A stretch of 26,853 bases of DNA from a virus (lineage: Duplodnaviria; Caudoviricetes): the IMG/VR virus record IMGVR_UViG_3300020045_002589, positions 1-26,853 of that record. One strand, 5' to 3'. Both the position numbers and the translations under genes were made by a program. The notes beneath the pieces are model-generated. The model did no database searches, was not told the origin of the DNA, and saw only the letters and a program-made list of their open reading frames with translations. Positions within the stretch are counted from its first letter, which is position 1. Each line of letters begins with the position of its first letter. This document shows positions 2,332 through 20,442 of this stretch, in pieces.

Positions 2332-2568
2332 ATGAGCATCCCAACTGCACCACTCCAAACCCCTGAATTTGACCAAAACTGGATTCATTACTTTGCGGTG
2401 ATTAGTCCTATTATTGCCAGTCTTGCTGATAGCGGAACTACTACTGTACGTCCTATTAAGGGTCTTTGGATTGGTAGGCAATTCTTTGATACAACTATCG
2501 GTAAGCCAATCTATGTTAAGACTTTAGTTCCTATTGTTTGGGTAGATGCTGCTGGAGTAGTAGTCTAA
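2332..2568 (+). CDS. Small virion/tail accessory protein
   Basis: SGTTTVRP..L.IGRQFFDTTIGKPIY..WVDA.G..V is a motif common in phage tail/spike proteins. The stop overlaps the next start (TAATG). Confidence 0.65.
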   Translation: MSIPTAPLQTPEFDQNWIHYFAVISPIIASLADSGTTTVRPIKGLWIGRQFFDTTIGKPIYVKTLVPIVWVDAAGVVV

Positions 2569-3437
2569 TGGAAAACTCTACTATTATTAACCCATCTGAA
2601 CAGTTACTTGTCTCTGTAAATCTATCAACAGAGCTTGAACCTTTAGTTTTAACAGAGCCACAGTTAAGTTGTCCCGTCATTCATACTTTAGCCCCTAAGA
2701 TGTATATTCGGGAAGTCCATTTACCAAAGGGAGCTTTCATCTTAGGTAACTATCACACCACACTACACCAGAATATCATGTTAAAAGGTGAACTAGACCT
2801 AATACATGAGGATGGTTCTGCTACAAGGATAGTTGCTCCTTATATGTGTACTGGTAGTATTGGTCGTAAGATGGCTTTTATCATAGAAGATACTGTCTGG
2901 TTAAACTTATTCTCTGTAGAAGATGAAGAACAAGATATAGAAGTTCTTGAAGCGCGTTTCATGGATAGAAGTGAAGCCTTCCTGCAAGCTAGAGATAGTG
3001 CAAAGGTAACGCCCTTGGAGGATATTGAAGACTTTAGCTACTTCTTGGAATGCTTCCAACTAGATAGAGAAACAGTCCAAGCAATCCCAGAAGATACTTC
3101 CGATTTAATAAAGTTACCCTATGGTAGTTACAAATTCAAGATAGCAGACTCTACTATTGCTGGTAAAGGTGTCTTTGCAACAGCTAATATAGCTAGTGGA
3201 GAACTAATTGGAGCTAGTAGGATAGGAAATAAAAGAACTTCACTTGGCAGATACTTAAATCATGCTAAAGAACCCAATGCAACTATGATAAGAGTAGGCG
3301 AAGATATTCTCTTAATAGCTACAAAGGAGTTACTTGGTTGTTTTGGGGGTCTTGATGGGGAAGAAATTACAGTAAACTATGCGGATGTATTACAAGTAAC
3401 TCACTTGGCAAACGCAGTATCGGAGGATTTAAAATGA
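2568..3437 (+). CDS. Cupin-like domain fused to a SET-domain (putative lysine methyltransferase) protein
   Basis: N-terminal H.LAP.MYIREVHLPKG.FILG.YH...H.NIMLKG cupin pattern. C-terminal SET motifs STIAGKGVFAT..I..GE.I, RYLNHAKEPN and GEEITVNY. ATG 2568 is coupled to the upstream stop. Confidence 0.85.
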   Translation: MENSTIINPSEQLLVSVNLSTELEPLVLTEPQLSCPVIHTLAPKMYIREVHLPKGAFILGNYHTTLHQNIMLKGELDLIHEDGSATRIVAPYMCTGSIGRKMAFIIEDTVWLNLFSVEDEEQDIEVLEARFMDRSEAFLQARDSAKVTPLEDIEDFSYFLECFQLDRETVQAIPEDTSDLIKLPYGSYKFKIADSTIAGKGVFATANIASGELIGASRIGNKRTSLGRYLNHAKEPNATMIRVGEDILLIATKELLGCFGGLDGEEITVNYADVLQVTHLANAVSEDLK

Positions 3438-5353
3438 GTGGAGTAGCTGCCGCAGTAGCCGTGGGTACAGCCGTAGTAACGACTGGCGCACAAATGTATT
3501 CTTCTAGTAAGGCTAATAAAGCCCAGAAGAATGCCTTAAATCAACAGGGGGAGACAAGCCAAGGTAACTTTAATGATACTTCTGCCCTATATAGTCCGTA
3601 TGTAACCTCAGGTACTAATGCCTTAAATCGCTTACAGACGGGTACAGCTAAACCTATGACTGAGGAGCAGTTTACAAAAGCTAACCAAGCCTATCAAGTA
3701 GCATTGAATGACTGGAATAGCACGGAAGCTAGATACAACACAATGAAAGCCCAGTATAATCAACTAGACCAAAATGGAAAGAATGCCGTAGGTAACTCTC
3801 CAGAAGGTATGGTGGAATACTTTGATAAAGCATTAGCGGATAAGTATAAAGCTGGTAAACCAAGTGAACCTACCAATGAAGGTAGAGGAGAGTTTAGCCA
3901 ACTTGCTAATATGACCCCACAGGACTACTTTGCAGCCGAAGCCGCCGCTGGTAGACCAGTTTCCGCAGTTGACCAGAACTGGAACGCTAACTTTGACCAA
4001 GCAAGTTACTTAGCCTCCCAAGGTAAGAGTCCTACAGCTTTAAATGATAACTTTAACACCAATGCTCATTTAAAACAGTTTGGGAAGTCCGAAGCTGATA
4101 TGTATAAAGACTTTAGCATGAACGATTGGTTAACTGCCCAAGGTAAAGACCCAAATGCTTTAGTACAGAACTTTGACCAAGCGGGTTACTTAGCTAGTCA
4201 AGGTAGAAGTGCTGATGCTTTAAATCAAAACTTTGACCAAAACGCTTACTTAGTTTCTCAAGGTAAACAGGCAGGTGACTTAAATGCTAACTTCGACCAA
4301 GCCGCATATCTAGCTTCCCAAGGTAGAAGTGTAGTGGACTTAAATGCTAACTTTGATATGGGTAGTTGGTTACAAAGTCAGGGTAGAAGTACCAATGCGT
4401 TAACCCGTGACTTTGCTATGTCGGACTATCAAGAAGACCCCGCATATAAGTTTAGACTAGACCAAGGCAATAGAAGTCTTGAAGCAAGTGCAGCCTCACG
4501 AGGTACTACTTTAAGTGGTGCAACCTTGAAGGCTCTTAGTGCTTATAACCAAGGAGAGGCAAGTCAAGAGTATCAAAACAGTGTAACTCGTTACAATGTT
4601 AATAGAAATAATTTACAAAGTGTTGCTTATAACGCTCAAGGTCAATTTGGTACTGATAGAGGTAATCTTATCGGTAACACTAACCAAGCTGCAAGTCAGT
4701 TTGGACAAAACAGGGCTAATCTAGTTTCTAACACTGCTAATGCTTCCAGTCAGTTTGAACGGGATAGAGGTAATCTTATTAGCAATACCACTAATGCAGC
4801 TAACCAGTTTGGACAAGATAGAAGCCAATTAACTAATGTTGCTTATAATGCTCAAGGTCAGTTTATTGGTGATAGAAGCAACCTAGTAGCTAATGTTGGT
4901 AATGCCTCTAATCAGTTTACAAATGATAGAGCTAATCTTATTAGCAATGTTGGTAACGAGTTTAATAGATTTAACACTAACCAGAATAAGCTATATGGTA
5001 AGTTCGTTGATGCTTATGGCAGACAAAGTGGGGCAAAACAGACTGATTTTAGCAATATCTATGGACTAAGTAATCAAGGTTTACAGGCTACTTATGCACA
5101 AGCTCAAGCTGGACAGACTAATGCGGATAACCAAATGGGTGTTCAAGCTGGTATTGGTAATGCCCAAGTTCAACAAAGTAATAGCAATGCTAATGCTATT
5201 AGTGGACTAGCTGGTACTGTAGGTGGTGTAGCCGCTAACTACTTTAAGAACCAACCCTTATCCTCTGGTGGTGGTACCTCTGGTGGTAGTTCTAGTGGTA
5301 ATGCTTTAACTGGCTATACTCCATATCAATCACCTAATTATAGACTATACTAA
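3434..5353 (+). CDS. DNA ejection/pilot protein (P22 gp7-like) with expanded internal repeats
   Basis: Small-residue hydrophobic N-terminus, LYSPYVTSG..ALNRL, and conserved core DPAYKFRLDQG..SLEASAASRG..LSGATLKAL..Y.Q..ASQEY. Gln/Asn/Gly/Ala-rich. Confidence 0.8.
   Translation: MSGVAAAVAVGTAVVTTGAQMYSSSKANKAQKNALNQQGETSQGNFNDTSALYSPYVTSGTNALNRLQTGTAKPMTEEQFTKANQAYQVALNDWNSTEARYNTMKAQYNQLDQNGKNAVGNSPEGMVEYFDKALADKYKAGKPSEPTNEGRGEFSQLANMTPQDYFAAEAAAGRPVSAVDQNWNANFDQASYLASQGKSPTALNDNFNTNAHLKQFGKSEADMYKDFSMNDWLTAQGKDPNALVQNFDQAGYLASQGRSADALNQNFDQNAYLVSQGKQAGDLNANFDQAAYLASQGRSVVDLNANFDMGSWLQSQGRSTNALTRDFAMSDYQEDPAYKFRLDQGNRSLEASAASRGTTLSGATLKALSAYNQGEASQEYQNSVTRYNVNRNNLQSVAYNAQGQFGTDRGNLIGNTNQAASQFGQNRANLVSNTANASSQFERDRGNLISNTTNAANQFGQDRSQLTNVAYNAQGQFIGDRSNLVANVGNASNQFTNDRANLISNVGNEFNRFNTNQNKLYGKFVDAYGRQSGAKQTDFSNIYGLSNQGLQATYAQAQAGQTNADNQMGVQAGIGNAQVQQSNSNANAISGLAGTVGGVAANYFKNQPLSSGGGTSGGSSSGNALTGYTPYQSPNYRLY
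3989..4408 (+). repeat. 7 x 60-bp (20-aa) coding tandem repeat, consensus NFDQAxYLASQGxSxxxLNx
   Basis: The repeat register recurs exactly every 60 nt (CTTTG-like starts at 3991, 4051, 4111, 4171, 4231, 4291, 4351). Confidence 0.9.
4604..4981 (+). repeat. 7 x 54-bp (18-aa) coding tandem repeat, consensus RxNLxxNxxNAxxQFxxD
   Basis: Seven consecutive 18-aa units from RNNLQSVAYNAQGQFGTD to RANLISNVGNEFNRFNTN. Confidence 0.9.
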
Positions 5354-5364
5354 GGAGTAATCTC

Positions 5365-6603
5365 ATGCCAGTTAATCAACAAACGGATACCAGCTTAGTT
5401 AATAACTTTGCAGCCACTCAAAATGCTTTTAACAATGCCTACACAACAACTGTAGCCAATATGGATGCTATCCGTAAAGGACGGGAAAGTGCTACTGTTA
5501 ACAAACTAATGTCCGAAGCAGTTGACCCAGCTACAGGAACATTTGATAAGAATAAGTTAATAGGGGGCTTGGCTAGTGTTGGCTTAGGTAGCGAGATACC
5601 AACCCAACTAGCTAACATTCAAAGTAATGAAATTAACAATCTAAAGGTTGCGGGAGCTAAGATTGAAGCTTCCCAGCAACAACTTGGTTTAATCGGGCAA
5701 CTCTTTGGTGGTATTACTACTAAAGTTGAATATGATAATGCTAAAGCTAGGGCACAGGAACTTGGTATTGATGTTAGTAGGTATCCAGACGCTACTGATG
5801 ATGCTAGTGCAGCTAGTTTCGGAAAGACTGCTTCTAGTAATGCTGTCAGTGCTTCTGATAAGCTTGACTTTGAGTATAAGAATAGTGAACTCTATACTCG
5901 AATGGAGAAATATAAGCAACAAGATGCACTTGCGCAGTCTAAGTTAACACAAGATGAGGCTCAGTTTAATCAAGACCAACAAACTAAACAAGAGAATCAA
6001 CAAGCTTTACGAGAAGATAGACAGGCTAATAGAGAGGATAGACAAACTGCAAGACAGGAAGCCCTTGAGGCTAAGAAAGAAGCAGCCGCTAATAAGCCAA
6101 TGCCAGTAGGTTACGCTAAGCAGTATCAGGAACTACTTGATAAGGAAGCTGCCCATAATAGCAACATTGCAAGGGCTAATGACCTTCTTATTGACCCTGC
6201 TTTGGAGAATGTTAATCTTGTTACTGGTAAGGTTGCAGGGGTACAGAATTGGCTTGGAGCTGATAGCGAAACTTCAAGATATGTTGCTAAACTGCAATCG
6301 GGTATCAAGGAGATTGTTAATGAAGACTTAAGACTTAACAAAGGAGCGCAAACTGATAAAGACTATGTTAATTCTAAAGATGCCTTACTTAGTGCTACAA
6401 ACCAGAACAATCCAGCATTAATTAAGCAAGCATTGGGGAATTATATGGCGCAACAAAAGAGACTAATGAGTACAACTCTTGCTGGTAAGAAGGTTATTGA
6501 GAGTCAGTTCCCAACGCAAACAACAGGTGAGTCTGCTAGTGGCTCTAAAGGGAGAACTCATTCCACTCTTGGAACAATTAGCCCAGATGAGGAGGATTTA
6601 TAA
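5365..6603 (+). CDS. Second ejection protein (positional equivalent of P22 gp20)
   Basis: AGGAG SD, position between two ejection genes, helical Ala/Gln-rich sequence with a charged coiled-coil segment. Function is inferred from synteny. Confidence 0.65.
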   Translation: MPVNQQTDTSLVNNFAATQNAFNNAYTTTVANMDAIRKGRESATVNKLMSEAVDPATGTFDKNKLIGGLASVGLGSEIPTQLANIQSNEINNLKVAGAKIEASQQQLGLIGQLFGGITTKVEYDNAKARAQELGIDVSRYPDATDDASAASFGKTASSNAVSASDKLDFEYKNSELYTRMEKYKQQDALAQSKLTQDEAQFNQDQQTKQENQQALREDRQANREDRQTARQEALEAKKEAAANKPMPVGYAKQYQELLDKEAAHNSNIARANDLLIDPALENVNLVTGKVAGVQNWLGADSETSRYVAKLQSGIKEIVNEDLRLNKGAQTDKDYVNSKDALLSATNQNNPALIKQALGNYMAQQKRLMSTTLAGKKVIESQFPTQTTGESASGSKGRTHSTLGTISPDEEDL

Positions 6604-8459
6604 TGGCTAATAAACAAGAAGTTTATCAATGGTGGATAAATAAAGGTTATCCACCCCATGAAGCAGCGGCTTTAACAGGTAACTTTGTAGCCGAATCAGG
6701 TCTTGACCCAACTGTTTACAATAAACAAGGTAGTGGTGCTTTCGGTACTGCCCAATGGCTAGGTAGTCGTAAGAAGGATTTACTTAACTTTGCTAAGTCA
6801 GAGGGCAAAGACCCTTATGATACTGCTACTCAGCTAGAGTTTGCAGACTTTGAACTACACGGGAAGGAAGCTAATGCGCTAAAGAAACTCCAAGCTACCA
6901 ATAATGTTGAAGATGCGGCTTATGCAGTGGCTAAGTATTATGAAAGACCTAGTGATAAAGAGATTGCAGGTTCAATAGCAAAACGAACTAATGTTGCACA
7001 AAGTTTACTAGGTAGTGAAGGAGAGGGCGGCTCTGGTGGTGCTGGGGGCTTATCAACTGAACTATCCGAAGATAAGGTACAACGTATTCAGGCATATCGT
7101 AAGGCTAAGGAGAGTAATCCAAGCCTTACTGTAGCTGACTTCAAGGCAACTAGCCCTTTATATAGTGTAGAGAAACCAACTACGGGTGAACCTACTATTG
7201 ATGAAGCTAAAGTTGCTAAGATATTAGCATATAGAGCAGCAAAGTCACAGAATCCTAATCTAACTACCGCAGAGTTTAAAGCTACTAGCCCTTTGTATAA
7301 TAAACCCTTAACAGTAACAGATAATACAAAAACAGAAGCAGCTTCTCCACTATTAGATACTATCACTGACGTTCCTAGACTAGCTACTAATACGGCAGGT
7401 TTCATTGCTAACTCTGCTACAAAAGCTGTAGGTAATACTCTTGATACTATTGTTAATACTCCAGAGAATATTTCTAACTTAATGGGAGCTGGCTTAGGTT
7501 TTATTGGAGGAGAACTTGGTGTACCTGCTAAGTTTTTACCTGAATTAAACACACCAACTGCAAAGGTAAGTAATCTTGCAAAGGAGACTGGGGTTATTTC
7601 AAGCAACCCAGAGTATAATCCTACTTCAACAGGTGGTAAAGTAGCCGATGCTGCTATTCAAGGTGGGGTTGGGTATGCTACACTACCTGCTAGTGGACTT
7701 GCTAATGTTGGTAAGAACTTATTAACAGGTGCAACTATGGGTGGTACTGCATCCGCTGTCACAGAAGCTACGGATAATCCTTTAGTTGGTACAGTTGCAG
7801 GGGTAGTTGCTCCCGCAGTTATTACTAAAGGGTCTTCACTTGTTACAAATAACCCACTAACTAGGGGAGTTGGAAAGATTACTACTAAGATTGCTAATGA
7901 AGTTCCTTACTATTCAAAAGCTGGTGCTGAGAAGGCTGCTGCTGTTAGAATTAATGAGGAATTTAATACTTTACAAGGTCTTAGAAATAGGACGATATTA
8001 AGTCCAGAAGATAACTATGGAGTGATTAAACTACTTGCTGAACAAAGACTAGCTTTATCAGATTCTTTAAAATCAAAGATGCTAAAAGCTCCAGATACTA
8101 TTATTCATAGAAACCCTGAGTTAGTTTCAAGTTCTGCTGGGGCTGCACTTGGTAGTGCCTTAGTAGGTTCTCCTTTAGGTGGTGCTGTTGCTGGGTACTT
8201 CTTTAAAGGAGCTGCTAAGAAGCTTGTTGATAGTCTAACTACTAAGCAAAATCAAGCCCTGCAAGATGCAGTTAATAAAGGTCTTACTAACCCAGAGACT
8301 TTACAAGCGGCTTTCTCGAAGATGCAGCCTAAAGAAGTTCCTTCATTCTTCAAGGAACTAGAGAAACTTAATACACCTGAAAGTCAAGCAAGAATAGGTA
8401 TGGCGTTACCTAATGAAGATAAAGATAAGAAACCCGTAAATAAACTAATAAGTAATTAA
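6603..8459 (+). CDS. Third ejection protein with N-terminal phage tail lysozyme (Phage_lysozyme2-like) domain
   Basis: AAALTGNFVAESGLDP, GAFGTAQWLGSRK..L..FA, QLEF...EL.G.E and A...YERP motifs, followed by a Gly/Ala-rich helical region. Confidence 0.85.
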   Translation: MANKQEVYQWWINKGYPPHEAAALTGNFVAESGLDPTVYNKQGSGAFGTAQWLGSRKKDLLNFAKSEGKDPYDTATQLEFADFELHGKEANALKKLQATNNVEDAAYAVAKYYERPSDKEIAGSIAKRTNVAQSLLGSEGEGGSGGAGGLSTELSEDKVQRIQAYRKAKESNPSLTVADFKATSPLYSVEKPTTGEPTIDEAKVAKILAYRAAKSQNPNLTTAEFKATSPLYNKPLTVTDNTKTEAASPLLDTITDVPRLATNTAGFIANSATKAVGNTLDTIVNTPENISNLMGAGLGFIGGELGVPAKFLPELNTPTAKVSNLAKETGVISSNPEYNPTSTGGKVADAAIQGGVGYATLPASGLANVGKNLLTGATMGGTASAVTEATDNPLVGTVAGVVAPAVITKGSSLVTNNPLTRGVGKITTKIANEVPYYSKAGAEKAAAVRINEEFNTLQGLRNRTILSPEDNYGVIKLLAEQRLALSDSLKSKMLKAPDTIIHRNPELVSSSAGAALGSALVGSPLGGAVAGYFFKGAAKKLVDSLTTKQNQALQDAVNKGLTNPETLQAAFSKMQPKEVPSFFKELEKLNTPESQARIGMALPNEDKDKKPVNKLISN

Positions 8460-8479
8460 GATTAACTTTGGAGAACAGT

Positions 8480-9787
8480 ATGACAACTTCCGTAGCACTA
8501 GCCCCAGTAGCTAGACAACAATTCTTAGATGCTAATGGTAATCCATTAGTAGGTGCTAAGTTATTTACCTATCAAAGTGGTACTAATACTAAGTTAGTAA
8601 CCTACCAAGATAGCACAGGAACAAGTATGAATACCAATCCTATCTTATTGGATAGTTCTGGTAGACCTCCTCATGGGGTTTGGTTAAGTAATACAGCCTA
8701 TCGGTTTGTATTTGCACCTTCTACTGACACAGACCCCCCTACAAGTCCTATCTATACAGAGGATGGAATAATTACTAAAGCAGTAGTGTTATCAGATAGT
8801 TCTGAAAATCAGTGGCAAGCTAGTGGTTTGCTTCCAACTTACATTTCAGCTACTTCTTTCTCAGTTGTGGGGGATAACACGCTAGTCTTGGAGATTGGCA
8901 GACGTGTAAGGGTAGCCCTTGGTACAGGTTATGTTTATGGAACAGTTACTTCTTCTGTTTATGCTACTGGTATTACCACAGTTAAAGTTCTGTTAGATAG
9001 TGGGGTGATAAGTACCGCTATAAGTGGTGTTGACTACAGTGTCCTTACTTACAGTAATCATGCAGTACCAAATGTATATTCACCTAGTATTGTAGGTAAG
9101 AATTTATTAATAAATGGTTCTTTTGCTATTAATCAAAGACAAGTAGCGGATACTGTTATATTAACTATCGGGGGTTATGGGCATGATAGATGGAAAGGTG
9201 GAACCTCTGGATGTGTTTACCAATTTGCAGGTTCCCAAGGTTTAACAACAGTAACTATTTTAGCGGCTTCGTTGGTGCAAATTGTTGAAAGTATTAATGT
9301 ACCTTCTGGTACTAATACACTAACACTTTCATGGACTGGTACTGCACTAGGTAGGATAGGAACAGGTGCATACTCCACCTCCCCAGTTAGTGCTTCTGTA
9401 ACAGGTGGTGCTAACGTGCAAGTTGAGTTTACTGCTGGTACACTAGCTGAGGTGCAATTAGAAAAGGGTAAATTTCCAACTACTTATGAAAAGCGAATAT
9501 ATTCTCTTGAGTATTTATTATGCGCTAGGTATTTTACAAGGTTAGATAAACAAATAATTGCTGGGTATAATACAGCAGGAAGTAGAATATATGCGAATAT
9601 AATATTTCCAACTCTTGTAAGAGCTGGTGGGACTCCAACTATAGTAATCACACCTACATATTTTAATTCCTCAGGCGTACTTATTTCAGGTATAACTAAT
9701 AATAATAGTTGTTGGGTTTCTGCTGCGGTTACTGGAACAGGAGATGCTAATTGTTCTTTTAGTATGACAATAGATTGGGATATTTAA
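8480..9787 (+). CDS. Tail fibre/spike with N-terminal head-binding-type domain
   Basis: N-terminal QFLDANGNPL.GAKLFTY.SGT......Y.D.....NTNPI.LDSSGR. Distal module KNLLINGSF.INQR...YGHDRW...VQLEKG...T.YE.R....E...C.RYF. SD TTGGAG precedes ATG 8480. Confidence 0.8.
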   Translation: MTTSVALAPVARQQFLDANGNPLVGAKLFTYQSGTNTKLVTYQDSTGTSMNTNPILLDSSGRPPHGVWLSNTAYRFVFAPSTDTDPPTSPIYTEDGIITKAVVLSDSSENQWQASGLLPTYISATSFSVVGDNTLVLEIGRRVRVALGTGYVYGTVTSSVYATGITTVKVLLDSGVISTAISGVDYSVLTYSNHAVPNVYSPSIVGKNLLINGSFAINQRQVADTVILTIGGYGHDRWKGGTSGCVYQFAGSQGLTTVTILAASLVQIVESINVPSGTNTLTLSWTGTALGRIGTGAYSTSPVSASVTGGANVQVEFTAGTLAEVQLEKGKFPTTYEKRIYSLEYLLCARYFTRLDKQIIAGYNTAGSRIYANIIFPTLVRAGGTPTIVITPTYFNSSGVLISGITNNNSCWVSAAVTGTGDANCSFSMTIDWDI

Positions 9788-9801
9788 TAGAGGTTATGAA
9801 G

Positions 9802-10065
9802 ATGAGTTTTAAAGAGAAACTAGCTGAGCTTCCACAGCAACCATTGGGAACAAAAGACTTAATGGAAGGCTGGGAGTCTACAGTTCCACTTGAGAAAAGT
9901 GATAGGCTTAAATTGCTTAGTCATATTGCACAAGTATCAGACTCTATCCCTGATAGGCTACGAGCTATTGATTTATTATGTAAAATTAATAATGATTTTA
10001 AAGAGGAGGATAAGGGTAAATTCACAGTTGAAGTTGTTGTTAGTGAGACTGATATGAAACTTTAA
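9802..10065 (+). CDS. Probable small terminase-like protein (oligomerisation part only)
   Basis: L..IA......DRLRAIDLL.K....F.E followed by a beta-tail (FTVEVVV) resembles TerS C-terminal regions. GAGG at 9790-9793 favours ATG 9802. Confidence 0.5.
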   Translation: MSFKEKLAELPQQPLGTKDLMEGWESTVPLEKSDRLKLLSHIAQVSDSIPDRLRAIDLLCKINNDFKEEDKGKFTVEVVVSETDMKL

Positions 10066-10086
10066 TAGCATAGCTATTGCAAAGAG

Positions 10087-10116
10087 AAGGTTAGTTTTGA
10101 TTAACTAACCTTTTTT
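10087..10116. terminator. Intrinsic terminator between convergent genes, probably bidirectional
   Basis: Stem AAGGTTAGTT / AACTAACCTT, T-run downstream and A-rich upstream. Confidence 0.75.
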
Positions 10117-10152
10117 AATGAAAATAATGAAAATAATGCTTGACAAGTGAGG

Positions 10153-10176
10153 TGGAATCTTTTTTCTGATAATTCC
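10153..10176 (+). repeat. 24-bp inverted repeat, copy A
   Basis: TGGAATCTTTTTTCTGATAATTCC is the exact reverse complement of 21905-21928. Confidence 0.95.
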
Positions 10177-10220
10177 TTAATAGCGGTTAAACCGATATGA
10201 GAAAATGTTCCAAAAAATGC

Positions 10221-11438
10221 CTAAAATTCCCTAGGCAATGTCCATTTGTTGTTAAATCCGATTACAAATTTCTTAGTTAATGCAAATGCAAGTTCTCTGC
10301 TATAAGCTACACAGTCCCAGTTACGAGCTAACTCAATATGACTAAGCTGAACAAAGTCTTTTCCTTTAATCTTACTAAGTGAATTAACCCTTTGCTCAAG
10401 TAAATAACCAACAATCTCATTCTTACTAAGTAAGTTTGTTTGTTCTGCCAGCTTTGCTAATTCCCCCCATAACAACTGCTTATCATCTACCGTAAGTAAT
10501 TTATTAATTATAACATCCATTGGGATAATCTTATAATCAAAGTTAATTATCTGCTTTGCTGTTAGCTTACAAAGTAAGTTCTGCCTTCTATTAACTTCAA
10601 TATTCTTACCAAGGAACATTCTTGTAACTTTAGTAGTAGCTTGCTTGCTAAGTCCTAACTCCAAGCTACTAATTTGTTTCCAAATGGCAGAACTATCAAC
10701 CTCAGGGAATAGCTTTTCATAGTCGGAAGCTTCCCCAGTGAATACCCAATCCAGTAAACCACCAGTCTCCACTGAAAGTAATACCTGTCTAGCAAAACAA
10801 CCAAGGAACTTTGTTTCCAACGGAGTTAACCCAAGAGAAGCTATTTGGTCTATCTTATCTTCCCTTGGATAATCTAAGTATTCCTTAAGTGGATTACTCT
10901 TATACTTCATACTAACCAAGTGAACTCTATTGGTTAAACTTGTTGGTAAGCCATTAAGCGCAAGGAGGTCTTCCAGTTTTGCCTTAGCTAGTTCCTTTGG
11001 AATATTACTACCAAACTTAAGAGTAATAATATCATTTAATTCCTCATAAACAATATCAATCCCATAGCATTTACAAAGTATAGCTAAATTATCACTTGTT
11101 GCAAGGACTTTATCCCCTTTCTTATCCTTGAATAACTGTACTGGAATTGGCATCCCCATATCAATTATGTTAGTAAGAAGGCTTGCTTGCATCTTTTCAA
11201 CCTCTCCCTTAATAAGCATTTCAAGTATCTTACCCTTACCATGCAATTGAGGTAGCCCAGCTAGATAATGAGCAATAATAGGTATAAAGCTAACAGTTTT
11301 AAAAAGTCCTTCCTCTTTTAACTCATAAATATCCCCAACAATACCCTCAGAGATAGTAAACACATTACTCTCTTTTTGATACTTTCTACAAAAGTAAGCT
11401 ATGGCTTCCGTCCTAGTTTGACCTGTTATAGACTTCAT
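10221..11438 (-). CDS. Degenerate VapE/VirE-like (primase-associated helicase-like) protein
   Basis: NLAILCKCYGIDIVYEEL and KYKSNPLKEYLD resemble the N-terminal part of VapE-type domains, but no GxxGxGKS Walker A is present. Start MKSITG at 11438 follows GAAGGG. Confidence 0.45.
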   Translation of the reverse strand: MKSITGQTRTEAIAYFCRKYQKESNVFTISEGIVGDIYELKEEGLFKTVSFIPIIAHYLAGLPQLHGKGKILEMLIKGEVEKMQASLLTNIIDMGMPIPVQLFKDKKGDKVLATSDNLAILCKCYGIDIVYEELNDIITLKFGSNIPKELAKAKLEDLLALNGLPTSLTNRVHLVSMKYKSNPLKEYLDYPREDKIDQIASLGLTPLETKFLGCFARQVLLSVETGGLLDWVFTGEASDYEKLFPEVDSSAIWKQISSLELGLSKQATTKVTRMFLGKNIEVNRRQNLLCKLTAKQIINFDYKIIPMDVIINKLLTVDDKQLLWGELAKLAEQTNLLSKNEIVGYLLEQRVNSLSKIKGKDFVQLSHIELARNWDCVAYSRELAFALTKKFVIGFNNKWTLPREF

Positions 11439-11507
11439 GGGTAACCCTTCTTTAGTTGCTAATTTGCCCGAATAGTAGCATAAAAAGCCCAGAATTACTA
11501 GAAATAC

Positions 11508-11536
11508 TTGCCTTGCCAAGCAACCTATGATATGAT
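11508..11536 (+). promoter_or_regulatory. Putative sigma70 promoter for the portal block
   Basis: TTGCCT (11508-11513), 17 nt, TATGAT (11531-11536), with extended -10 TG. Confidence 0.6.
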
Positions 11537-11568
11537 GCCAACATACCTAACCAAGCAGGAATCTACTA

Positions 11569-12015
11569 ATGAGTTCCCCAATCACAGATAGTATCACCAC
11601 AGCCCTTGAGCTGGGAGTACCTTATGATAGCTTCGTAGACCACCTACTTAAGGTTTTCTCAGAAGATTCACTTACAAAAGGTTTCATTGCTTCCCAAACT
11701 TGCTTTTATCTAACTTCCGAACAAGTAGAGATTATGAAGTTAAGCTTGGATGTTGCAAACCACGCTGCCCTCTATACTCAAATAACTAAGATAAAATCCT
11801 TAACAAGAATATTACCACCAATGGCACTTACAGAACTTACTGAGGAGTTTAAACTCGCAGTAGCTTTTGTTAATGCAACAGGGGTTACTGGTGTAGTAGC
11901 TTGGGTACTTGCCAATGAACTCGTTCTAGCTAGAACAGGTATTGATTGCCATAAGTTACTACGCGTGAAGGAACTTATAGCTACACCAACTACTTTGGAG
12001 ACCGCTAATGCCTAA
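11569..12015 (+). CDS. Hypothetical protein upstream of the portal
   Basis: 148 aa, AGGA SD, overlaps the portal start; no motif recognised. Confidence 0.7.
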   Translation: MSSPITDSITTALELGVPYDSFVDHLLKVFSEDSLTKGFIASQTCFYLTSEQVEIMKLSLDVANHAALYTQITKIKSLTRILPPMALTELTEEFKLAVAFVNATGVTGVVAWVLANELVLARTGIDCHKLLRVKELIATPTTLETANA

Positions 12016-14173
12016 CATGGATAAGAAACAAGAACTAACCCAGTCCGAAGACGATGATAAAATCCTTAGTGAAGCCCTAAAACGCTTCGATTACTTAATG
12101 GAATTGGATGCTGATAATCGGGAACTTTGGAAAGAAGACCTTAAATTTGCTAATGGCGACCCTGATAATGGTTGGCAACTAGAGTCTAATGTTTTCCAAG
12201 ATAGACAAGCTGCTGGCAAACCTTGTCTTACGGTTAATAAAGTTAAAGCTCTTAACCGTGTTATCACAAACGAATACCGAATGAATAGGACAAGTCCTAA
12301 AGTTATTCCTTCTGGTGGTGGTAGTGATAAAGATACAGCGGAGACCTTTAACAGTATCATTCGACATATTGAAGCACAGTCTTGTGCAGATTCAGTCTAC
12401 AGTAATGCCTTTGAGTTCGCGGTAAATGCTGGACTTGGCTACTATCGTGTTGTAACTGATTATCTCCATGAGGAGTCTTTTGACCAAGAAATCTTCCTAA
12501 GAGCTGTCAGAAATCCACTTAATATCTTGATGGATTTAGGTAACTTCTCTGATGGTAGGGATAGTCGCTATGCTTTTGACTTTACGGATATGCCAAGAGA
12601 GGAGTTTGAAGCTGCTTACCCCGACGAGACTGTAGCAGACTTCTCCAGAAGTAATGGTTCTAATGGTTGGGTAACTGAGGAAACTGTCCGTCTTTGTGAA
12701 TACTTTAGAGTAGTTGCAGAAGAGGATACTTTATATTCCTTACCAGATGGTAACTCTATCCGTGCTAGTAAGATAAAAACTACCCTTGGCTTGGAAGACT
12801 TAGATACCAGTGAGCTTAAGTCTCGTAAGATTACTGCACATAAAGTTGAGTGGTTCTTACTAGGTAATAATACTATCCTAGAACGGGGTATTTGGGCTGG
12901 TAAGTATATTCCCATTATCCGTGTAGTTGGACATGAAATTGAAGTTGACAATAAGTTATACCGTTGTGGACATACCCGTGCAATGAAAGATGTACAAAGA
13001 ATGTATAACTTCTGGACTAGCTCTGCTGTAGAAGCTGTTGGCTTACACGGTAAACAACCATACTTTGCGGCTATAGCTGCTATTCAAGGTTTTGAAGATG
13101 AATGGGATAGCTTAAATACAGACGATGTTGCCTATCTACCTTACAATCATGTTGATTCGGCTGGTAATCCTATCCCAGTTCCAGTTAAACAAGAAGGCGC
13201 ACCTATCCCAGCGGCTTACTTACAAGGTATGAAGACTGCAAGTGATGAAATGCAAGCTATTAGTGGTCAGTATGATGCACAAACTGGACAGTCGGTTAAT
13301 AACCAGTCAGGTGTTGCTATTGATAACTTACAACGAAAAGGTGATGTAGCTACTTATCATCTTATCGACAATGCTGAAATGGCTAAGTTATTCACAACAG
13401 CCCTATTAATTGACCTTATTCCTAAAATCTATGATACTCCCCGTGTTGTTCGTATTGTTGGGGAAGATAATAAAGAAGGTGAGATTGAGATTAATCCTAA
13501 CTTACCAGTAGCTAGAGAAAGTCAACAAACTGAGACTGGAGAGATACGAAATATCTTTAACCCATCTGTAGGTAGATATGATGTTCAACCTGCTACAGGT
13601 GCTAACTATGCAACAGGTAGAAGAGAGCAAAGTGCCGCACTACTTTCCTTAGTTACTTCTAATCCTGCCTTGTGGGATATAGCTGGGGATTTAATAGCTT
13701 CTAGTTTAGATTTCCCATTAAGTGAGGAAATAGCAACTAGACTAGCAACAAGGATTAATCCACCACCAGTTGAACCACCTCCCTTACCAGAAGTTCCACA
13801 AGATGTACAAGAGCATATCATTGCTCAAGAGTCTATGATTAAATCAATGGATACTGTTATAACTCAAATGCAAGCGGATATTAACAAGAAAGAAGTACAA
13901 CTTGTTGAGAAAAGTAGAGCTGATACTATAAAGGAAAGAGAACTTGCAGTTAAAGAGTATGAAGCTGAGACAGATAGACTTAAAGTTCTTGAACCCACTA
14001 TGAGTCCAGAAGCTATTAGGACTATGGTAATGCAATTGATGTTTGATATGCGGGAAGCACCAAGAGTTGATGCTGAGGAAGCCTATACTGCACAAGAGTT
14101 CTCTCCAATGCCTGTACCGATGAGAGAACCAATGCCTGTAGTAACTGAACAACCAATTAACCCATTAATTTAA
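12008..14173 (+). CDS. P22-like portal protein
   Basis: 721 aa with EDLKFANG...WQ, PCLTVNK, F..AV..GLGY, YIPII.V.G, MKD.QR.YN, SGVAI, LIPKIYDTPRVVRI.G and GRYDV...G..Y.T.R, plus a C-terminal coiled coil. Confidence 0.93.
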   Translation: MPNMDKKQELTQSEDDDKILSEALKRFDYLMELDADNRELWKEDLKFANGDPDNGWQLESNVFQDRQAAGKPCLTVNKVKALNRVITNEYRMNRTSPKVIPSGGGSDKDTAETFNSIIRHIEAQSCADSVYSNAFEFAVNAGLGYYRVVTDYLHEESFDQEIFLRAVRNPLNILMDLGNFSDGRDSRYAFDFTDMPREEFEAAYPDETVADFSRSNGSNGWVTEETVRLCEYFRVVAEEDTLYSLPDGNSIRASKIKTTLGLEDLDTSELKSRKITAHKVEWFLLGNNTILERGIWAGKYIPIIRVVGHEIEVDNKLYRCGHTRAMKDVQRMYNFWTSSAVEAVGLHGKQPYFAAIAAIQGFEDEWDSLNTDDVAYLPYNHVDSAGNPIPVPVKQEGAPIPAAYLQGMKTASDEMQAISGQYDAQTGQSVNNQSGVAIDNLQRKGDVATYHLIDNAEMAKLFTTALLIDLIPKIYDTPRVVRIVGEDNKEGEIEINPNLPVARESQQTETGEIRNIFNPSVGRYDVQPATGANYATGRREQSAALLSLVTSNPALWDIAGDLIASSLDFPLSEEIATRLATRINPPPVEPPPLPEVPQDVQEHIIAQESMIKSMDTVITQMQADINKKEVQLVEKSRADTIKERELAVKEYEAETDRLKVLEPTMSPEAIRTMVMQLMFDMREAPRVDAEEAYTAQEFSPMPVPMREPMPVVTEQPINPLI

Positions 14174-14181
14174 CTAAACTA

Positions 14182-14207
14182 GGGGAGTTTATCTCCCCAT
14201 TCTTTTT
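14182..14207 (+). terminator. Intrinsic terminator after the portal
   Basis: GGGGAG-TTTAT-CTCCCC followed by ATTCTTTTT. Confidence 0.7.
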
Positions 14208-14218
14208 GGAGAATAACA

Positions 14219-14404
14219 ATGCTCAAACCTACTAAACTTCGTGCTGGAACAGACGTTAAAGGAGGCGATAACTATGGTACTTCCTCAAGTGTAACTCACT
14301 ATGGAAAAGGAAGTATCACCCGACCAACTAACCATGAGAAGTTTGCTTCTGAATGGGATAGAATCTTTGGTAAGAAAGCTACTTTGGAGACTCCTAATGT
14401 CTGA
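14219..14404 (+). CDS. Small conserved phage protein (GKGS..RP....F...WDRIFGKK motif)
   Basis: SD TTGGAG. I recall this motif from many short phage hypothetical proteins; function unknown. Confidence 0.7.
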   Translation: MLKPTKLRAGTDVKGGDNYGTSSSVTHYGKGSITRPTNHEKFASEWDRIFGKKATLETPNV

Positions 14405-14633
14405 CCAATCAAAAATTACAGGCTACAGAAGCCTTACTAAAGTCGAACTTGATTTAATAAACGAATCAAAGGAATTAGCAGGGCTAGTAGGAAAGTTTGT
14501 AGATAAACTAGCCTTAATGCCTAGCTCGGAAACTCTTGTAGTTGATATGCGCTGGGTTGCTATCGGCAAAACCGACCTACAAACAGGCTTCATGGCATTA
14601 GTTCGAGCTATTGCTAAACCAGAGTCCTTTTAA
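14397..14633 (+). CDS. acb2: Acb2-family anti-CBASS cyclic-nucleotide sponge protein
   Basis: KITGYRSL...E.DLIN..KE ... RWVAIGKTDLQTGFMALVRAIAKPESF matches the Acb2 signature (KI.GYR.L..EEI..MN..K ... RW.AI.KT..QTG.MA..RAIA.P.SF). GGAGA SD precedes ATG 14397. Confidence 0.88.
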   Translation: MSDQSKITGYRSLTKVELDLINESKELAGLVGKFVDKLALMPSSETLVVDMRWVAIGKTDLQTGFMALVRAIAKPESF

Positions 14634-14747
14634 ACTAGATAGAATTAGAAAGATACCGCTGAGTTACCAGAAGCTAAAGACTGCCTAACTCTAACTTAGT
14701 TAAAGGTTTGCCTGTGGTATACTACGAATAAAACAGTGTGGCAGGGG

Positions 14748-14776
14748 TTGACAATGCTGTAAGCTTCTGCTATGCT
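14748..14776 (+). promoter_or_regulatory. Sigma70 promoter for the scaffold gene
   Basis: TTGACA (14748-14753), 17 nt, TATGCT (14771-14776), with extended -10 TG. Confidence 0.75.
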
Positions 14777-14834
14777 TTGACCTTAGGTTTCTTCACTACC
14801 TCTTAAAAGTGATGCTTTACAAGGATTAATTCCA

Positions 14835-15560
14835 ATGACTATCAACGCCCAAGACCCTCAAGATACCGAAGCTACTATCGAAGTTACCGACCCTGTTAGT
14901 GAATCAACCACCGATGAAGCTTCCACCGAAGAAGATAATACCCCAGTTCCTACCTCCGAAGAAGAGAAGTCTGCTGTACAAAAGCGAATTAACGCTATGA
15001 CGAAGGAAAAGTATGAGCTTAAGCAGAAGTTGGCAGCCGCCGAAGCTAAACTAGCTACTCAACCAGTAGACCCTTTGAATGTAACTCCAGAAACTCTCCA
15101 AGACTTAGTTCATAAAGAAGCTACACGACTTGCACAAGAATCTTCCTTTAACAATCGTTGTAATGATATTTTTGAAGAAGCTGTAAGCAAGATGCCTACC
15201 TTTGCAGAAGATATTAATACCCTGAATACCATCGGCTTAGTTGCTAACAAAGACCTCTTCGACTCTGTTGTAGAGTCCGATGTTGCCGCAGATATTCTTA
15301 TCTATCTTGCAGACAATCTTGAGGAAGCTGAGAGACTTATTAATCTTCCCTCCCGAAGTATGTATCGTGAATTAGCTAAACTCGAAGTTAAGCTATCAGA
15401 CACACCCGCACCAGCTAAGAAACCAGTTAGTAAAGCCCCTACACCTATTAAACCAGTAGCTTCACGCGGTGTAGTCTCTGAGATTGATGTAGAGAAGAAC
15501 CCCGCTGGCTGGATTGAACAACGCAATAAAGCACTAGCCCTTAAAAGGCAAGGAAAGTAA
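14835..15560 (+). CDS. Capsid scaffolding protein
   Basis: Acidic N-terminus, VQKRINAMTKEKYE coil, I.IYLA.N.EEA.RL..L, KPVSKAP.PI.PV and a basic C-terminal helix; lies between portal and coat. Confidence 0.85.
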   Translation: MTINAQDPQDTEATIEVTDPVSESTTDEASTEEDNTPVPTSEEEKSAVQKRINAMTKEKYELKQKLAAAEAKLATQPVDPLNVTPETLQDLVHKEATRLAQESSFNNRCNDIFEEAVSKMPTFAEDINTLNTIGLVANKDLFDSVVESDVAADILIYLADNLEEAERLINLPSRSMYRELAKLEVKLSDTPAPAKKPVSKAPTPIKPVASRGVVSEIDVEKNPAGWIEQRNKALALKRQGK

Positions 15561-15561
15561 T

Positions 15562-15774
15562 ATGCCATCCCCCAACCTTCCGAATAAACTAGACCCAGAC
15601 TATGAGAAAGCTTTACTAGATAAAGCGGTAGTCTTGGTAATTGCAGAGTTACTTAACCGTTTTAACTATCAAGTTAAGATACTAGGCACACTTTGTAACA
15701 TCATTAAGTGGACTTCCTTGATTGGGGGTGGCATCTATCTAGCTATTAAGAATAGGAGTATCCTCCAATGGTAA
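15562..15774 (+). CDS. Small membrane protein, possibly lysis-related
   Basis: C-terminal hydrophobic segment IIKWTSLIGGGIYLAI; overlaps a holin-like gene. Confidence 0.55.
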   Translation: MPSPNLPNKLDPDYEKALLDKAVVLVIAELLNRFNYQVKILGTLCNIIKWTSLIGGGIYLAIKNRSILQW

Positions 15775-15974
15775 GTTTTTCAAGAATCTTCTCCTCTTTA
15801 GTCTTTCTTCAACGAAGAATTAAAGAACCATCAAGTATCTTGGCAATAGCTTATCTTAGTGATAAGCTTGGATTAAGTATCTCTGATGTTGCACCCTTAG
15901 TAACAACTGGTTTAGGCTTCTTGGCATTCTTTGTACCCGAATGTCCCCCCTTGACCAAGGTAAATACCGATTAA
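15768..15974 (+). CDS. Holin-like membrane protein
   Basis: RIKEPSS followed by two short hydrophobic segments ending in PE resembles the R.KEPSTW small holin-like pattern. AGGAG SD. Confidence 0.55.
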   Translation: MVSFSRIFSSLVFLQRRIKEPSSILAIAYLSDKLGLSISDVAPLVTTGLGFLAFFVPECPPLTKVNTD

Positions 15975-15986
15975 TGCAAAATAACC

Positions 15987-16015
15987 TTGACATACTAGGT
16001 GAAGTTGTGTACGAT
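15987..16015 (+). promoter_or_regulatory. Sigma70 promoter for the coat gene
   Basis: TTGACA (15987-15992), 17 nt, TACGAT (16010-16015). Confidence 0.75.
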
Positions 16016-16127
16016 AACACTATCTTACCAATTTGGTATGTTTAAGGTTCTTGAGTCCTTTAACTCTCGTAGCTAGACAAAACTTAAACTCTTTTAATCT
16101 TAACATACTAAATAGGAAGTCAATCTC

Positions 16128-17372
16128 ATGGCTAATAACGTCGTAACAAGTTCTATGATTACCGCTGAAACATTGCGTGTAATCCACAATAACTCCGCTT
16201 TCTTGGGCAATATTAATACCCAGTTTGATGGTTCTTTCGCTAAGACTGGTGGTAAAGTCGGGCAGACAATTAACGCTCGTGTACCAGTTCAGTTTACTGT
16301 TCGTGAAGGTGCAGTTGCTAACATTCAAGATGTGAATGAAACTACTGTTCCAATTACTATTCAACCTGAAACTGGTATTGACTGGGCATTCAGTGACAGT
16401 GACCTTACATTAGGTATCGATAAGTTCTCAGAACGCTACTTAACTCCCGCTGGTAAACGCTTAGCTTCTGCATTGGATATGAAAATTGCTGCTTTGTACA
16501 AAAGCGTAGCTAACTTTAGTGGTACTGTTGGTACTTCTCCAGCTACAGCGGCTTCTGCATTACAAGCTGCGGCTATCTTAGATAACAATGGTGCGCCGCG
16601 TGATGGTTTAAGAACCTTTGCCTTAAATCCTTTAGCTAATGCTTCATTAGTTGGTGGCTTAGCAGGTTTACTGAATGACCAAGCTACTCTCGGCAAACAA
16701 TACAAAGAAGGCTTAATGGCTACTTCTTTAGGTATGGACTTTCAAATGAGTCAGAACTTACCTACCCATACTGTTGGTGGCTTAGGTGGTACTCCTTTAG
16801 TGGACGGTGCTAACCAAGGTACTATTAACGTAGGTACAACTGATAACCCTCATGCTACTACAACTAGCTTGCTGACTAAAGGTTGGACTGCTGCCGTAGC
16901 TAACAGACTGAAAGCTGGTGACGTTGTTACTCTTGCAGGTGTTTATGCAGTTAATCCAGAAACTAAACAAAACACTGGTGCGTTGAAGTCTTTTGCGGTA
17001 ACGGCTGATGTTAGTTCTACTGCTGGTGGTGCTGGTACTTTGGTATTATCTCCTGCAATCATCGCTGGTGGTGCTTATCAGAACGTAACTGCCCTTCCCG
17101 CTGATGGTGCTGCTGTTACCGTCTTAACTGGTGGTGCTGGTGTATCTAGTCCACAAAACATCTTGTTCCATAAAGATGCTTTCACATTGGTTTCTGTTGA
17201 TATGGAAACTATCAATGGCATGGATATGTTCTCACAAGAAACAGTTGATGATATTAGCTTACGTTTTGTTCGTGGTTATGACATTACTAATAACAGACGT
17301 ATCTGTAGATTTGATATGTTAGCTGGTTATGCTTTGATTCGACCAGAATGGGCTTGCCGAGTTACAAGCTAA
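16128..17372 (+). CDS. Major capsid protein, P22 gp5-like
   Basis: MANN..T...I..E.L..I.N, K.G.TIN.R.P, F.D.DL.L.I..FSERYL.PA, a central insertion domain, FHKDAF.LV and R.D.L.GY..IRPEWACR. Confidence 0.93.
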   Translation: MANNVVTSSMITAETLRVIHNNSAFLGNINTQFDGSFAKTGGKVGQTINARVPVQFTVREGAVANIQDVNETTVPITIQPETGIDWAFSDSDLTLGIDKFSERYLTPAGKRLASALDMKIAALYKSVANFSGTVGTSPATAASALQAAAILDNNGAPRDGLRTFALNPLANASLVGGLAGLLNDQATLGKQYKEGLMATSLGMDFQMSQNLPTHTVGGLGGTPLVDGANQGTINVGTTDNPHATTTSLLTKGWTAAVANRLKAGDVVTLAGVYAVNPETKQNTGALKSFAVTADVSSTAGGAGTLVLSPAIIAGGAYQNVTALPADGAAVTVLTGGAGVSSPQNILFHKDAFTLVSVDMETINGMDMFSQETVDDISLRFVRGYDITNNRRICRFDMLAGYALIRPEWACRVTS

Positions 17373-17385
17373 AGTAATCCTTCCA

Positions 17386-17415
17386 AGTGGGTAGTTATTA
17401 GCTGCCCACTCCTTT
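17386..17415 (+). terminator. Stem-loop after the coat gene (weak terminator or mRNA stabiliser)
   Basis: Stem AGTGGGTAGTT / AGCTGCCCACT with a poor U-tract (CCTTT). Confidence 0.5.
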
Positions 17416-17434
17416 CCATTCTTGAGGAACTACC

Positions 17435-17647
17435 ATGTTGAAATCTGATATAATCAAAGCAAGAGCTGTCGGTGGCAGACCAAAAGCTAAAGCTACTACA
17501 GTCAAGTCTGCCCCTGTTAAACCAACTGTACGCACGAAACCTACCGTTAAGGCAGTTAATAAATTAATGGGTGCTAAGCCTGTAACCGTTATTGTTGTTG
17601 GCAAGCCTAGTAAATCCAGTAAAGGCAAACCTAAGTCTAAATGCTAG
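17435..17647 (+). CDS. Small, very basic Lys/Pro/Val-rich protein (histone-tail/H1-like composition)
   Basis: GAGG SD. 70 aa with 16 Lys, 3 Arg and 1 Asp. Bounded by a hairpin and a terminator. Confidence 0.7.
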   Translation: MLKSDIIKARAVGGRPKAKATTVKSAPVKPTVRTKPTVKAVNKLMGAKPVTVIVVGKPSKSSKGKPKSKC

Positions 17648-17679
17648 ACTAGAACTACGTTCTGGTAGCTAAATAAAGT

Positions 17680-17709
17680 AAAGGGAGGCTACTAATGTCT
17701 CCCTTTTTT
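17680..17709 (+). terminator. Intrinsic terminator
   Basis: Stem AAAGGGAGGC / GTCTCCCTTT followed by a T-run. Confidence 0.8.
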
Positions 17710-17738
17710 GTATCAAGTATCTTGTTGGAGATAGTAAG

Positions 17739-18380
17739 ATGAAGAATAATGCTACGAAGATATACGGTTTAAGGAGCGAGAGGGATTCTATCATTACCAG
17801 TACCTTACAGGTTGGGCAGATATTCCATGAACTTGATTCCTGCACTGAATATGAATGGGACTCTGTTAGATGGGTTAAGTCTAGTGAACCATGCTTAGGT
17901 ATCCCACTTAGGAAGTTCCTAACACAGTCATTTGATGGTTTAGGAGTTTATAATCTACGGGGTAATTACCCAGTAGCTACTAACTTTGGCTATACAGTAG
18001 TCGGAACACCTTACACACTCCATTCATTACTATTCACAATAACTGACAATGCAACCTTTAATGCGCTAGACTATGGCGGCATAGTTGATGGCTTAACTAA
18101 TGGAATTTCCCTTTGGTTCAAGCCTTTAGCTGGAACACCAATTCCCTTAGTCTTCAATAATCCAATTAAATACAACTATGAGTGGTTTACCCATGTTGCG
18201 GATACGAGTCTTTCTACCTTCGCTGGCGGTACACAAACATTGGTTATTCCTTTGGATATTATTGATGATTATGGTGTCCCATTAACTATGTTAGTTGGGG
18301 ATAGTATCTATGTAACATTAAACGACAACTTTACTAATCTAATCTCTCATACCTTTGGTATCAGAGGAACAAGTCACTAA
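17739..18380 (+). CDS. Putative minor virion (head fibre/decoration-like) protein
   Basis: N-terminal GQIFHELDS..EYEWD...W resembles small trimerisation/attachment modules; the rest is beta-rich. Lies between coat and adaptor; SD TTGGAG. Confidence 0.55.
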   Translation: MKNNATKIYGLRSERDSIITSTLQVGQIFHELDSCTEYEWDSVRWVKSSEPCLGIPLRKFLTQSFDGLGVYNLRGNYPVATNFGYTVVGTPYTLHSLLFTITDNATFNALDYGGIVDGLTNGISLWFKPLAGTPIPLVFNNPIKYNYEWFTHVADTSLSTFAGGTQTLVIPLDIIDDYGVPLTMLVGDSIYVTLNDNFTNLISHTFGIRGTSH

Positions 18381-18390
18381 GGAATTTCCA

Positions 18391-19059: not shown

Positions 19060-19060
19060 G

Positions 19061-20437: not shown

Positions 20438-20442
20438 TTAAG

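Follow-up and report, generated by a model that had tools for sequence, protein, structure and literature searches.

A cupin-SET fusion encoded next to the first ejection gene of a P22-like podophage: a candidate methyltransferase for the ejection-protein N-terminus

SET domains are generally lysine methyltransferases, and vSET, the enzyme of PBCV-1, still methylates lysine with an aliphatic residue at its switch position. In podophages, the slot directly before the first ejection gene is held by gp14 in P22 and by gp13 in T7, both of which we take to be GNAT folds. A GNAT at the equivalent position has been noted for cobaviruses (PMC6775973). The sole characterised enzyme of an equivalent slot, the GNAT Rac (gp28) of phage LUZ19, acts on host RNA polymerase, with a reported effect on the alpha subunit (PMC7552054). 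As for N-termini, P22 gp7 loses a 20-residue leader to OpdA (record note). NTMT1 substrates begin with a small residue (Ser, Ala or Pro), like the ejection protein described below, and the N-terminal methyltransferases named in the available part of the same review are all seven-beta-strand enzymes, with no SET precedent there (PMC10293735).

Here we describe a SET protein encoded in such a slot. The window, by which we mean the whole analysed stretch of 26,853 nucleotides (IMG/VR record IMGVR_UViG_3300020045_002589), is a P22-like podophage fragment in which Pfam and PHROG matches revealed portal, scaffold, coat, head closure and terminase genes. A preliminary description of this DNA had proposed that a cupin-SET fusion gene is coupled to a tail protein gene upstream and to the first ejection gene downstream, in the position of P22 gp14. 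Both overlaps are present (TAATG upstream, ATGA downstream), with a GGAG ribosome site at 2554-2557. There is little to back the label of tail protein for the upstream 78-aa ORF, whose match to PHROG 20787 ("virion structural protein") reaches E 3e-4. The downstream gene is the first ejection gene as described (PHROG 598 "DNA ejection", E 2e-18), which places the fusion in the gp14 slot. PHROG 34170 (unknown function) spans the entire fusion protein, and PHROGs 12032 and 24280, both cupin families, match residues 20-142 (E 4e-20 and 8e-15). Coordinates are collected in Table 1.

Table 1. Coordinates of the fusion gene, its domains and its neighbours in the window.
Feature	Position	Strand	Remarks
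78-aa gene, gp26 position	2332..2568	+	TAATG overlap with fusion
Cupin-SET fusion gene	2568..3437	+	289 aa; PHROG 34170
Cupin domain, aa 31-133	2658..2966	+	family invariants H39, Y46, R48, G74, K101; no invariant metal triad
Cupin strand, aa 55-61	2730..2750	+	predicted pairing with residues 3-7 of mature ejection-protein N-terminus
Helical linker, aa 134-177	2967..3098	+	remnants kept in SET-less relatives
Minimal SET domain, aa 186-272	3123..3383	+	S195, GxG 199-201, T224, N231-H232, N237, E266, Y271 conserved
Six-residue GCxGG insertion in SET	3336..3353	+	absent from MLL1 and some family clades
P22-gp7-like ejection protein, 639 aa	3434..5353	+	ATGA overlap with fusion; inferred client
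Client N-terminus: Met-Ser-Gly-Val, then hydrophobic stretch	3434..3556	+	
Two more genes, gp20 and gp16 positions	5365..8459	+	second opens with phage tail lysozyme domain (PF18013, E 5e-32)

Several features of the window stand apart from the fusion. Gene order across 2332-21843 is unusual, with portal and coat coming after the ejection module. Next after the head-closure gene (19061-20437) comes the terminase large subunit, not a gp26/gp14/gp7 block. The gp7-like protein has 639 residues, compared to about 240 in most relatives, and contains at least five copies of a repeat of about 20 aa (NFDQ..YL..QG) in residues 184-317, with more Asn/Gln-rich repeats behind the conserved core. Between the portal and scaffold genes lies an Acb2/Tad1 hairpin-domain gene (14301-14633; PF24729, E 2e-13), possibly encoding an anti-defence nucleotide sponge. 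Three long ORFs of 432, 608 and 371 aa (10221-11519 on the minus strand, 21997-23823 on the plus strand and 24939-26054 on the minus strand) gave no convincing Pfam or PHROG family.

We examined whether the SET assignment holds. The SET motifs are intact (GKGVFA, 3162-3179; RYLNH, 3249-3263; GEEITVNY, 3357-3380), and the fusion scored 25.8 bits against Pfam SET (PF00856; cut-off 22.4). A profile of the fusion family matched the SET domain of MLL1 (E 1.7e-11) and vSET (E 1.8e-7); a search of the PDB with the single sequence gave nothing useful (best E 0.17, PCNA). An AF2 model built with 61 homologues (pLDDT 89.8, pTM 0.84) contains both a cupin and a SET fold, in agreement with the proposed fusion, and its residues 186-272 align with SET domains (EZH2, Z 8.9, rmsd 2.2, 84 aligned). 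Among 208 distinct proteins of the family, the 200 with both domains form the set behind all counts out of 200. Residues S195, G199, G201, T224, N231, H232, N237, E266 and Y271 are each present in 193-199 of these 200 homologues (for example, G199 in 194, G201 in 199, N231 in 196, H232 in 193 and Y271 in 195), and the SAM-binding and catalytic residues overall are kept in ~97%. Because these residues are so widely kept, the domain looks catalytically maintained.

The substrate-binding side of the domain is different. At position 217 (serine in the window), which we take to be the site of the lysine-channel tyrosine, Tyr occurs in 0/200 homologues, Phe in two and Ala in 142; of seven stand-alone bacterial SETs compared, five have Tyr at this position, which lies three residues past I214, the conserved Ile of the GExI strand. 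At position 269 (valine in the window), presumably the Phe/Tyr switch, no homologue has an aromatic residue and 169/200 have Val or Ile; an aliphatic switch residue is a feature that we take the fusion SET to share with vSET. The i-SET insert is also reduced, with ~9 residues between the aligned blocks compared to ~44 in MLL1, and the spacing from I214 to N231 is 17 residues in 186 of the 200. Thus, across the 200 homologues, neither of the two tested hallmarks of lysine N-methyltransferases, an aromatic lysine channel and an i-SET insert forming the peptide groove, was found. The SET motifs listed in the preliminary description, which noted that SET domains are lysine methyltransferases, are there; the sequence argues against an ordinary lysine enzyme. 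A C-terminal "CQ/CL", which we considered as a post-SET cysteine or a CaaX motif, is common in homologues; we rejected it, as these residues come from reading the ATGTC of the following gene in a different frame and are gone where the gene overlap differs. When short proteins related to the SET region alone were sought, in a search too insensitive to show absence, 0/1 candidate scored.

The N-terminal half is a cupin. In the AF2 model, residues 31-133 form the double-stranded beta-helix barrel of the cupin (RmlC-like) superfamily (best Z 9.5, rmsd 2.4, 84 aligned), and a short homologue (L178) scored 32.3 bits against Cupin_2 (cut-off 27.2). Among 285 distinct cupin rows, H39, F41, Y46, R/K48 and G74 are nearly fixed. 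Four histidine metal ligands are restricted to a short clade lacking SET (23 rows); fused cupins have Lys or Arg at the fourth ligand position (K101 in 196/200 fusions), and the window cupin has N61, H63, H67 and K101 at the ligand positions. A role as a metal enzyme, for which the conserved three to four His/Glu ligands are missing, thus found no support for the fused cupin, which without the four-His site reads better as a binding module. The members of the short clade, L178 and its relatives, are 104-120-aa cupins that occupy the same slot with a canonical four-His site and with clients starting mostly M-P-W; they may be true metal enzymes.

How widespread is the family? A word-indexed search recovered 63 proteins including the query. 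At E up to 1e-30, a full profile search recovered 654 clusters, some of which may be single-domain forms. Of the 51 phage records matched, 43 match the N-terminal part only, and in eight the match spans 80% or more of the query (P26218 and PH1 with two records each, zth2-2 and three spring-water genomes). P26218 and PH1 are cultured phages, of Rhodoferax and Pseudoalteromonas; in P26218 the fusion is gp30 and the putative client gp29. Full-length copies also occur in host-genome records, including Cupriavidus, Hydrogenophaga and an Oxalobacteraceae isolate, and many further matches are metagenome bins. One homologue (P0200) has the reverse domain order, SET then cupin, and a search for its locus gave none from 28 candidates; another (P0077) is extended at its N-terminus by a domain of ~270 aa, which on visual inspection resembles a glycosyltransferase. 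NCBIfam holds no model for the fusion; one GenBank record labels a homologue vSET-like, and the NCBI name of another is SET lysine methyltransferase. In literature searches that covered subscription journals poorly, we found no account of the fusion, of any bacteriophage SET or of N-terminal modification of an ejection protein, in keeping with the preliminary statement that no characterised phage system of this architecture was known. In the accessible parts of the papers on P26218, PBR31 and X14 the term "cupin" is absent, as is "methyltransferase" in those on P26218 and PBR31. We conclude that the cupin-SET family is real, widespread and unstudied, and is a variant of the SET methyltransferases.

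Fusions and lone cupins directly precede the first ejection gene in P22-like and PH1-like phages and the T7-gp14-like gene in RSB3. A downstream start adjoins the gene in the window and in 105 of 108 resolved loci; two lacked one and one further locus gave no ORF. Because the fusion matched neither DUF2824 nor PF11090 in Pfam and PHROG searches, its sequence indicates that it is a positional analogue, not a homologue, of P22 gp14 and T7 gp13. Searches for a GNAT relation of P22 gp14 and T7 gp13 themselves returned only their own families in Pfam, one weak match in the PDB and a profile-comparison probability of at most 12%.

We collected 160 loci in two scans that used the ejection-protein core alone. 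The slot held a cupin in 74, a cupin-SET in nine, a partial SET in one, a GNAT-class protein in 30 and a DDxxD protein in one; in 19 there was no enzyme-like gene adjacent, 12 had a 140-aa gene and 14 were truncated or unlabelled. Of the GNAT-class groups, one was above Pfam cut-offs, two matched weakly and one had no match. The 140-aa gene (L585, L598, L569, L575, L601 and seven more loci) weakly resembles P22 gp14 (profile E 2e-5, against two sequences; DUF2824, E 0.17), and the clients beside it start mostly M-P-[PVIL]. The DDxxD protein (L224:1804-2274 and L258-L337) has 156 aa, is all-helical with an invariant DDLID and belongs to PHROG 21390. Its model (pLDDT 95) found isoprenyl-diphosphate synthases and prenyltransferases as its top 28 fold matches (Z 6.1-8.9, below the 13 that is advised for helical bundles with VIA-align; the match at Z 8.9 has rmsd 3.7 over 140 aligned), and Foldseek gave no match; going by the model, it is a candidate peptide prenyltransferase for an ejection protein. 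In phage H4/4, a cupin (L115:2468-3168) follows the RNA polymerase gene and is separated from the portal by a small gene, which puts it in the place of Rac in LUZ19. Since this small gene encodes an 84-aa protein starting MSF, the reader may also serve small pre-portal proteins, not only those of the gp7 and gp14 types.

Cupin-only and cupin-SET loci thus occupy one slot but differ in how the next protein, the putative client, begins. Of 188 cupin-SET loci, 186 have a client beginning M-[ST]-[GAS], compared to 4 of the 244 loci with a cupin alone; dereplication at 92% identity leaves 94/96 and 3/91. The counts are restricted to loci with a readable downstream start (six SET and 11 SET-less loci without one were dropped in one of the analyses), and contigs recovered in several scans may be represented more than once. 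In the two ejection-core scans, the motif was found in 0/30 GNAT-class and 0/19 no-enzyme loci. Exceptions among intact or partial SET loci are L557, with a fully intact SET and client M-A-G; L558, with only the 3′ part of SET and client M-A-G; and L086, with client M-S-M.

We asked whether this association survives correction for ancestry. A FastTree phylogeny of 187 cupins has 11 changes in SET state and 14 in the motif. When seven independent, supported pairs from the tree were compared, the motif went with SET in 6.6 and the opposite way in 0.0 (median p 0.016, which is optimistic since the motif was defined after most of the data had been seen); the result was identical before metagenome loci were added. 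No single residue among positions 2-12 followed SET in this test, and Ser alone was rejected as the covarying trait (p 0.63), so that only the two-residue motif holds. In one cupin clade, scanned after a Ser/Ala split had been noticed in seven loci, clients start M-S in 39/39 SET loci and M-A in 39 of 41 SET-less loci, the latter having five different C-terminal tails, one with a SET remnant. Each of the two exceptions with Ser groups as sister to Ala loci whose tail is the same, as would be expected if SET had been lost first and Ser had changed to Ala later, an order that midpoint rooting leaves unproven. In a second clade (D478-like), [ST][GA] was present in 12/12 SET loci and SV in 40 of 42 SET-less loci.

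Other slot occupants have other client starts. Those of GNAT-class proteins start MG, MC, MAI or MAL, with one MIA, and those of lone cupins have TF, SV, AG, PW or SW. DDxxD clients overall start M-P-[DESN]-P: of 50 distinct sequences from close relatives, 37 start MP, another nine have M-[PS]-[DEN]-P slightly further in, by a few codons, and the remaining four start MAD, MSD or MDP. In these loci, each slot occupant pairs with its own client N-terminus.

To examine how the fusion might engage its client, we co-folded fusion residues 15-282, SAM and mature residues 1-40 of the window ejection protein. The score was 0.69, compared to 0.02 for the best control, the controls being unrelated proteins rather than other hydrophobic N-termini. 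Of 157 solved complexes, 116 attain the mark we used, as do 2 of 215 mismatched pairs, a calibration that holds only roughly here since custom alignments and a ligand were used. Runs agreed in at least 77% of contacts, with a partner pLDDT of at least 56. In the predicted complex, peptide residues 3-7 pair with cupin residues 56-60, and further contacts involve R48, H63, R100, N113, E128 and SET loop 258-261, which is part of the GCxGG insertion. N231, H232 and Y271 lie outside the confident interface. The model thus supports the cupin as a reader of the client N-terminus and does not place the Ser in the SET site. Sequence searches found no solved phage cupin complex.

The reading that we favour, with modest confidence and from sequence and model together, is that the N-terminus of the ejection protein is held out by the cupin to the SET domain, which methylates its Ser-Gly/Ala end; since that start is found almost only where SET is present, this end is the likely target. 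Methionine aminopeptidase removes Met when this exposes a small second residue such as Ser, and the host enzyme would in this way expose the Ser of the client. The cupin would bind residues 3-7 as an added beta-strand, and the two small residues could fit a widened channel without lysine-gripping aromatics. Within this reading, the alpha-amine is the probable acceptor because a lineage with intact SET tolerates Ala; O-methylation of the Ser hydroxyl is a less likely variant, which we keep because Ala replaces Ser after SET loss. Methylation may block or charge the terminus of a segment that inserts into the outer membrane, probably in the infected cell before the ejection protein is packed into the virion, and may serve protease resistance, correct loading or membrane entry. 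A point against this reading is that R48 and R100 line the pocket predicted in the cupin, with K101 beside them, an odd environment for a free amine. The preliminary description had envisaged a phage enzyme modifying virion, ejected or host proteins; protein modification is supported, with the target narrowed to the N-terminus of the adjacent ejection protein.

Could SET instead methylate a lysine, either further along the docked ejection protein or on another virion protein, with small residues 2-3 merely making room for SET beside the groove? The general activity of SET domains favours this, as does the predicted complex, in which loop 258-261 touches peptide residues 3-6 and the catalytic residues stay away from the confident interface; the position of the first client Lys, at median residue 24, speaks for it as well. 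We nevertheless consider it unlikely, since the channel aromatics are missing, Lys is absent from the first 35 residues of 35 of the 134 distinct clients linked to SET and the position of the first Lys is alike without SET. It also leaves unexplained the change from Ser to Ala after SET loss in a clade whose SET has no loop 258-261. A purely physical role, in which the fusion acts as a chaperone, covering the hydrophobic N-terminus and bringing the ejection protein into the prohead, while SET binds SAM or peptide without useful catalysis, would account for the lack of an invariant cupin metal site outside the short clade, for the at least 11 changes in SET presence on the cupin tree and for the 19/160 ejection loci with no adjacent enzyme-like gene. 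The retention of the catalytic Tyr and SAM motifs and the transferase folds of other slot occupants make it improbable.

A host target is more doubtful still. SET could methylate a bacterial protein in late infection, much as the GNAT Rac triggers cleavage of RNA polymerase alpha; Rac lies between the RNA polymerase and the first structural gene of LUZ19, and the cupin of Alteromonas phage H4/4 is in the Rac position. This would explain neither the covariation of SET with two residues of a neighbouring phage protein nor the predicted peptide binding. Lastly, the association could reflect hitchhiking, to which we assign the lowest probability of all. The 3′ end of SET adjoins the ejection-gene start, so that the two may recombine as one piece, and SET and SET-less rows are interleaved on the cupin tree, implying recombination or repeated loss; an ATGA overlap also makes codon 2 begin with A. 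Yet where codon 2 is free of the overlap, Ser is present in 61/61 SET loci (41 TCN and 20 AGY codons), ruling out that the overlap forces Ser. All six Ser codons occur, at offsets from -43 to +4, Ala is encoded by three different codons across five different SET-less tails, and residues 4-12 do not track SET in the pair test.

A broader proposal, which we hold more tentatively than N-terminal methylation itself, is that an exchangeable upstream enzyme (acyltransferase, prenyltransferase-fold, cupin or cupin-SET) matures the N-terminus of the first ejection protein according to a code of two to three residues. Under this proposal, cupin-SET would be the first SET-fold alpha-N-terminal methyltransferase, and N-terminal maturation would be the long-sought job of P22 gp14 and T7 gp13. 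That slot enzymes and client N-termini come in matched pairs suggests chemical finishing of DNA-ejection proteins ahead of packaging, which the ejection models in the part of the literature consulted do not include, and would mean that phage injection proteins undergo a maturation step so far unrecognised. For P22 gp14 and T7 gp13, which are poorly understood, this pairing supplies a hypothesis. For an unstudied, widespread phage SET family it supplies a specific, cheaply testable candidate client, and a SET acting on an N-terminus would, if true, be new chemistry for the fold.

Compared to described systems, the fusion combines familiar parts in a new setting. With PBCV-1 vSET (A612L; PDB 1n3j, 3kma), MLL1, EZH2 and SETD8 it shares the SET fold, GxG, NH and terminal Tyr, and with vSET also a minimal size. 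Unlike these enzymes, it has a cupin, an i-SET cut to a short hairpin and Ala, Gly or Ser in the channel, and it is encoded in a bacteriophage late operon with an N-terminus, not a histone lysine, as its inferred target. The PHROG 12032/24280 cupins (PHA00672) are homologous to its N-terminal half and occupy the same slot, but lack SET and have clients that are mostly bulky at position 3 (TF, SV, PW, SW) or AG. Their labels, "short tail fiber" and "tail fiber adhesin", are unsupported by fold or position, which suggests that many podophage "short tail fiber" annotations are cupins that bind an ejection protein. P22 gp14 (DUF2824), T7 gp13 and the slot GNATs share its position before gp7/gp14-type ejection genes and have unrelated folds. 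LUZ19 Rac, again of a different fold, is likewise a small transferase whose gene overlaps the first structural gene, as the fusion gene overlaps the ejection gene, and in phage H4/4 its position is taken by a cupin-only homologue. NTMT1/2, METTL13 and PrmA share the proposed chemistry; they are seven-beta-strand enzymes, a fold not seen in the AF2 model of cupin plus SET, whereas the fusion has a SET fold, a separate peptide-binding domain and no X-P-K motif. Judged from its model, the fusion may work like enzymes of the NTMT1/PrmA type, though it is not a member of that group.
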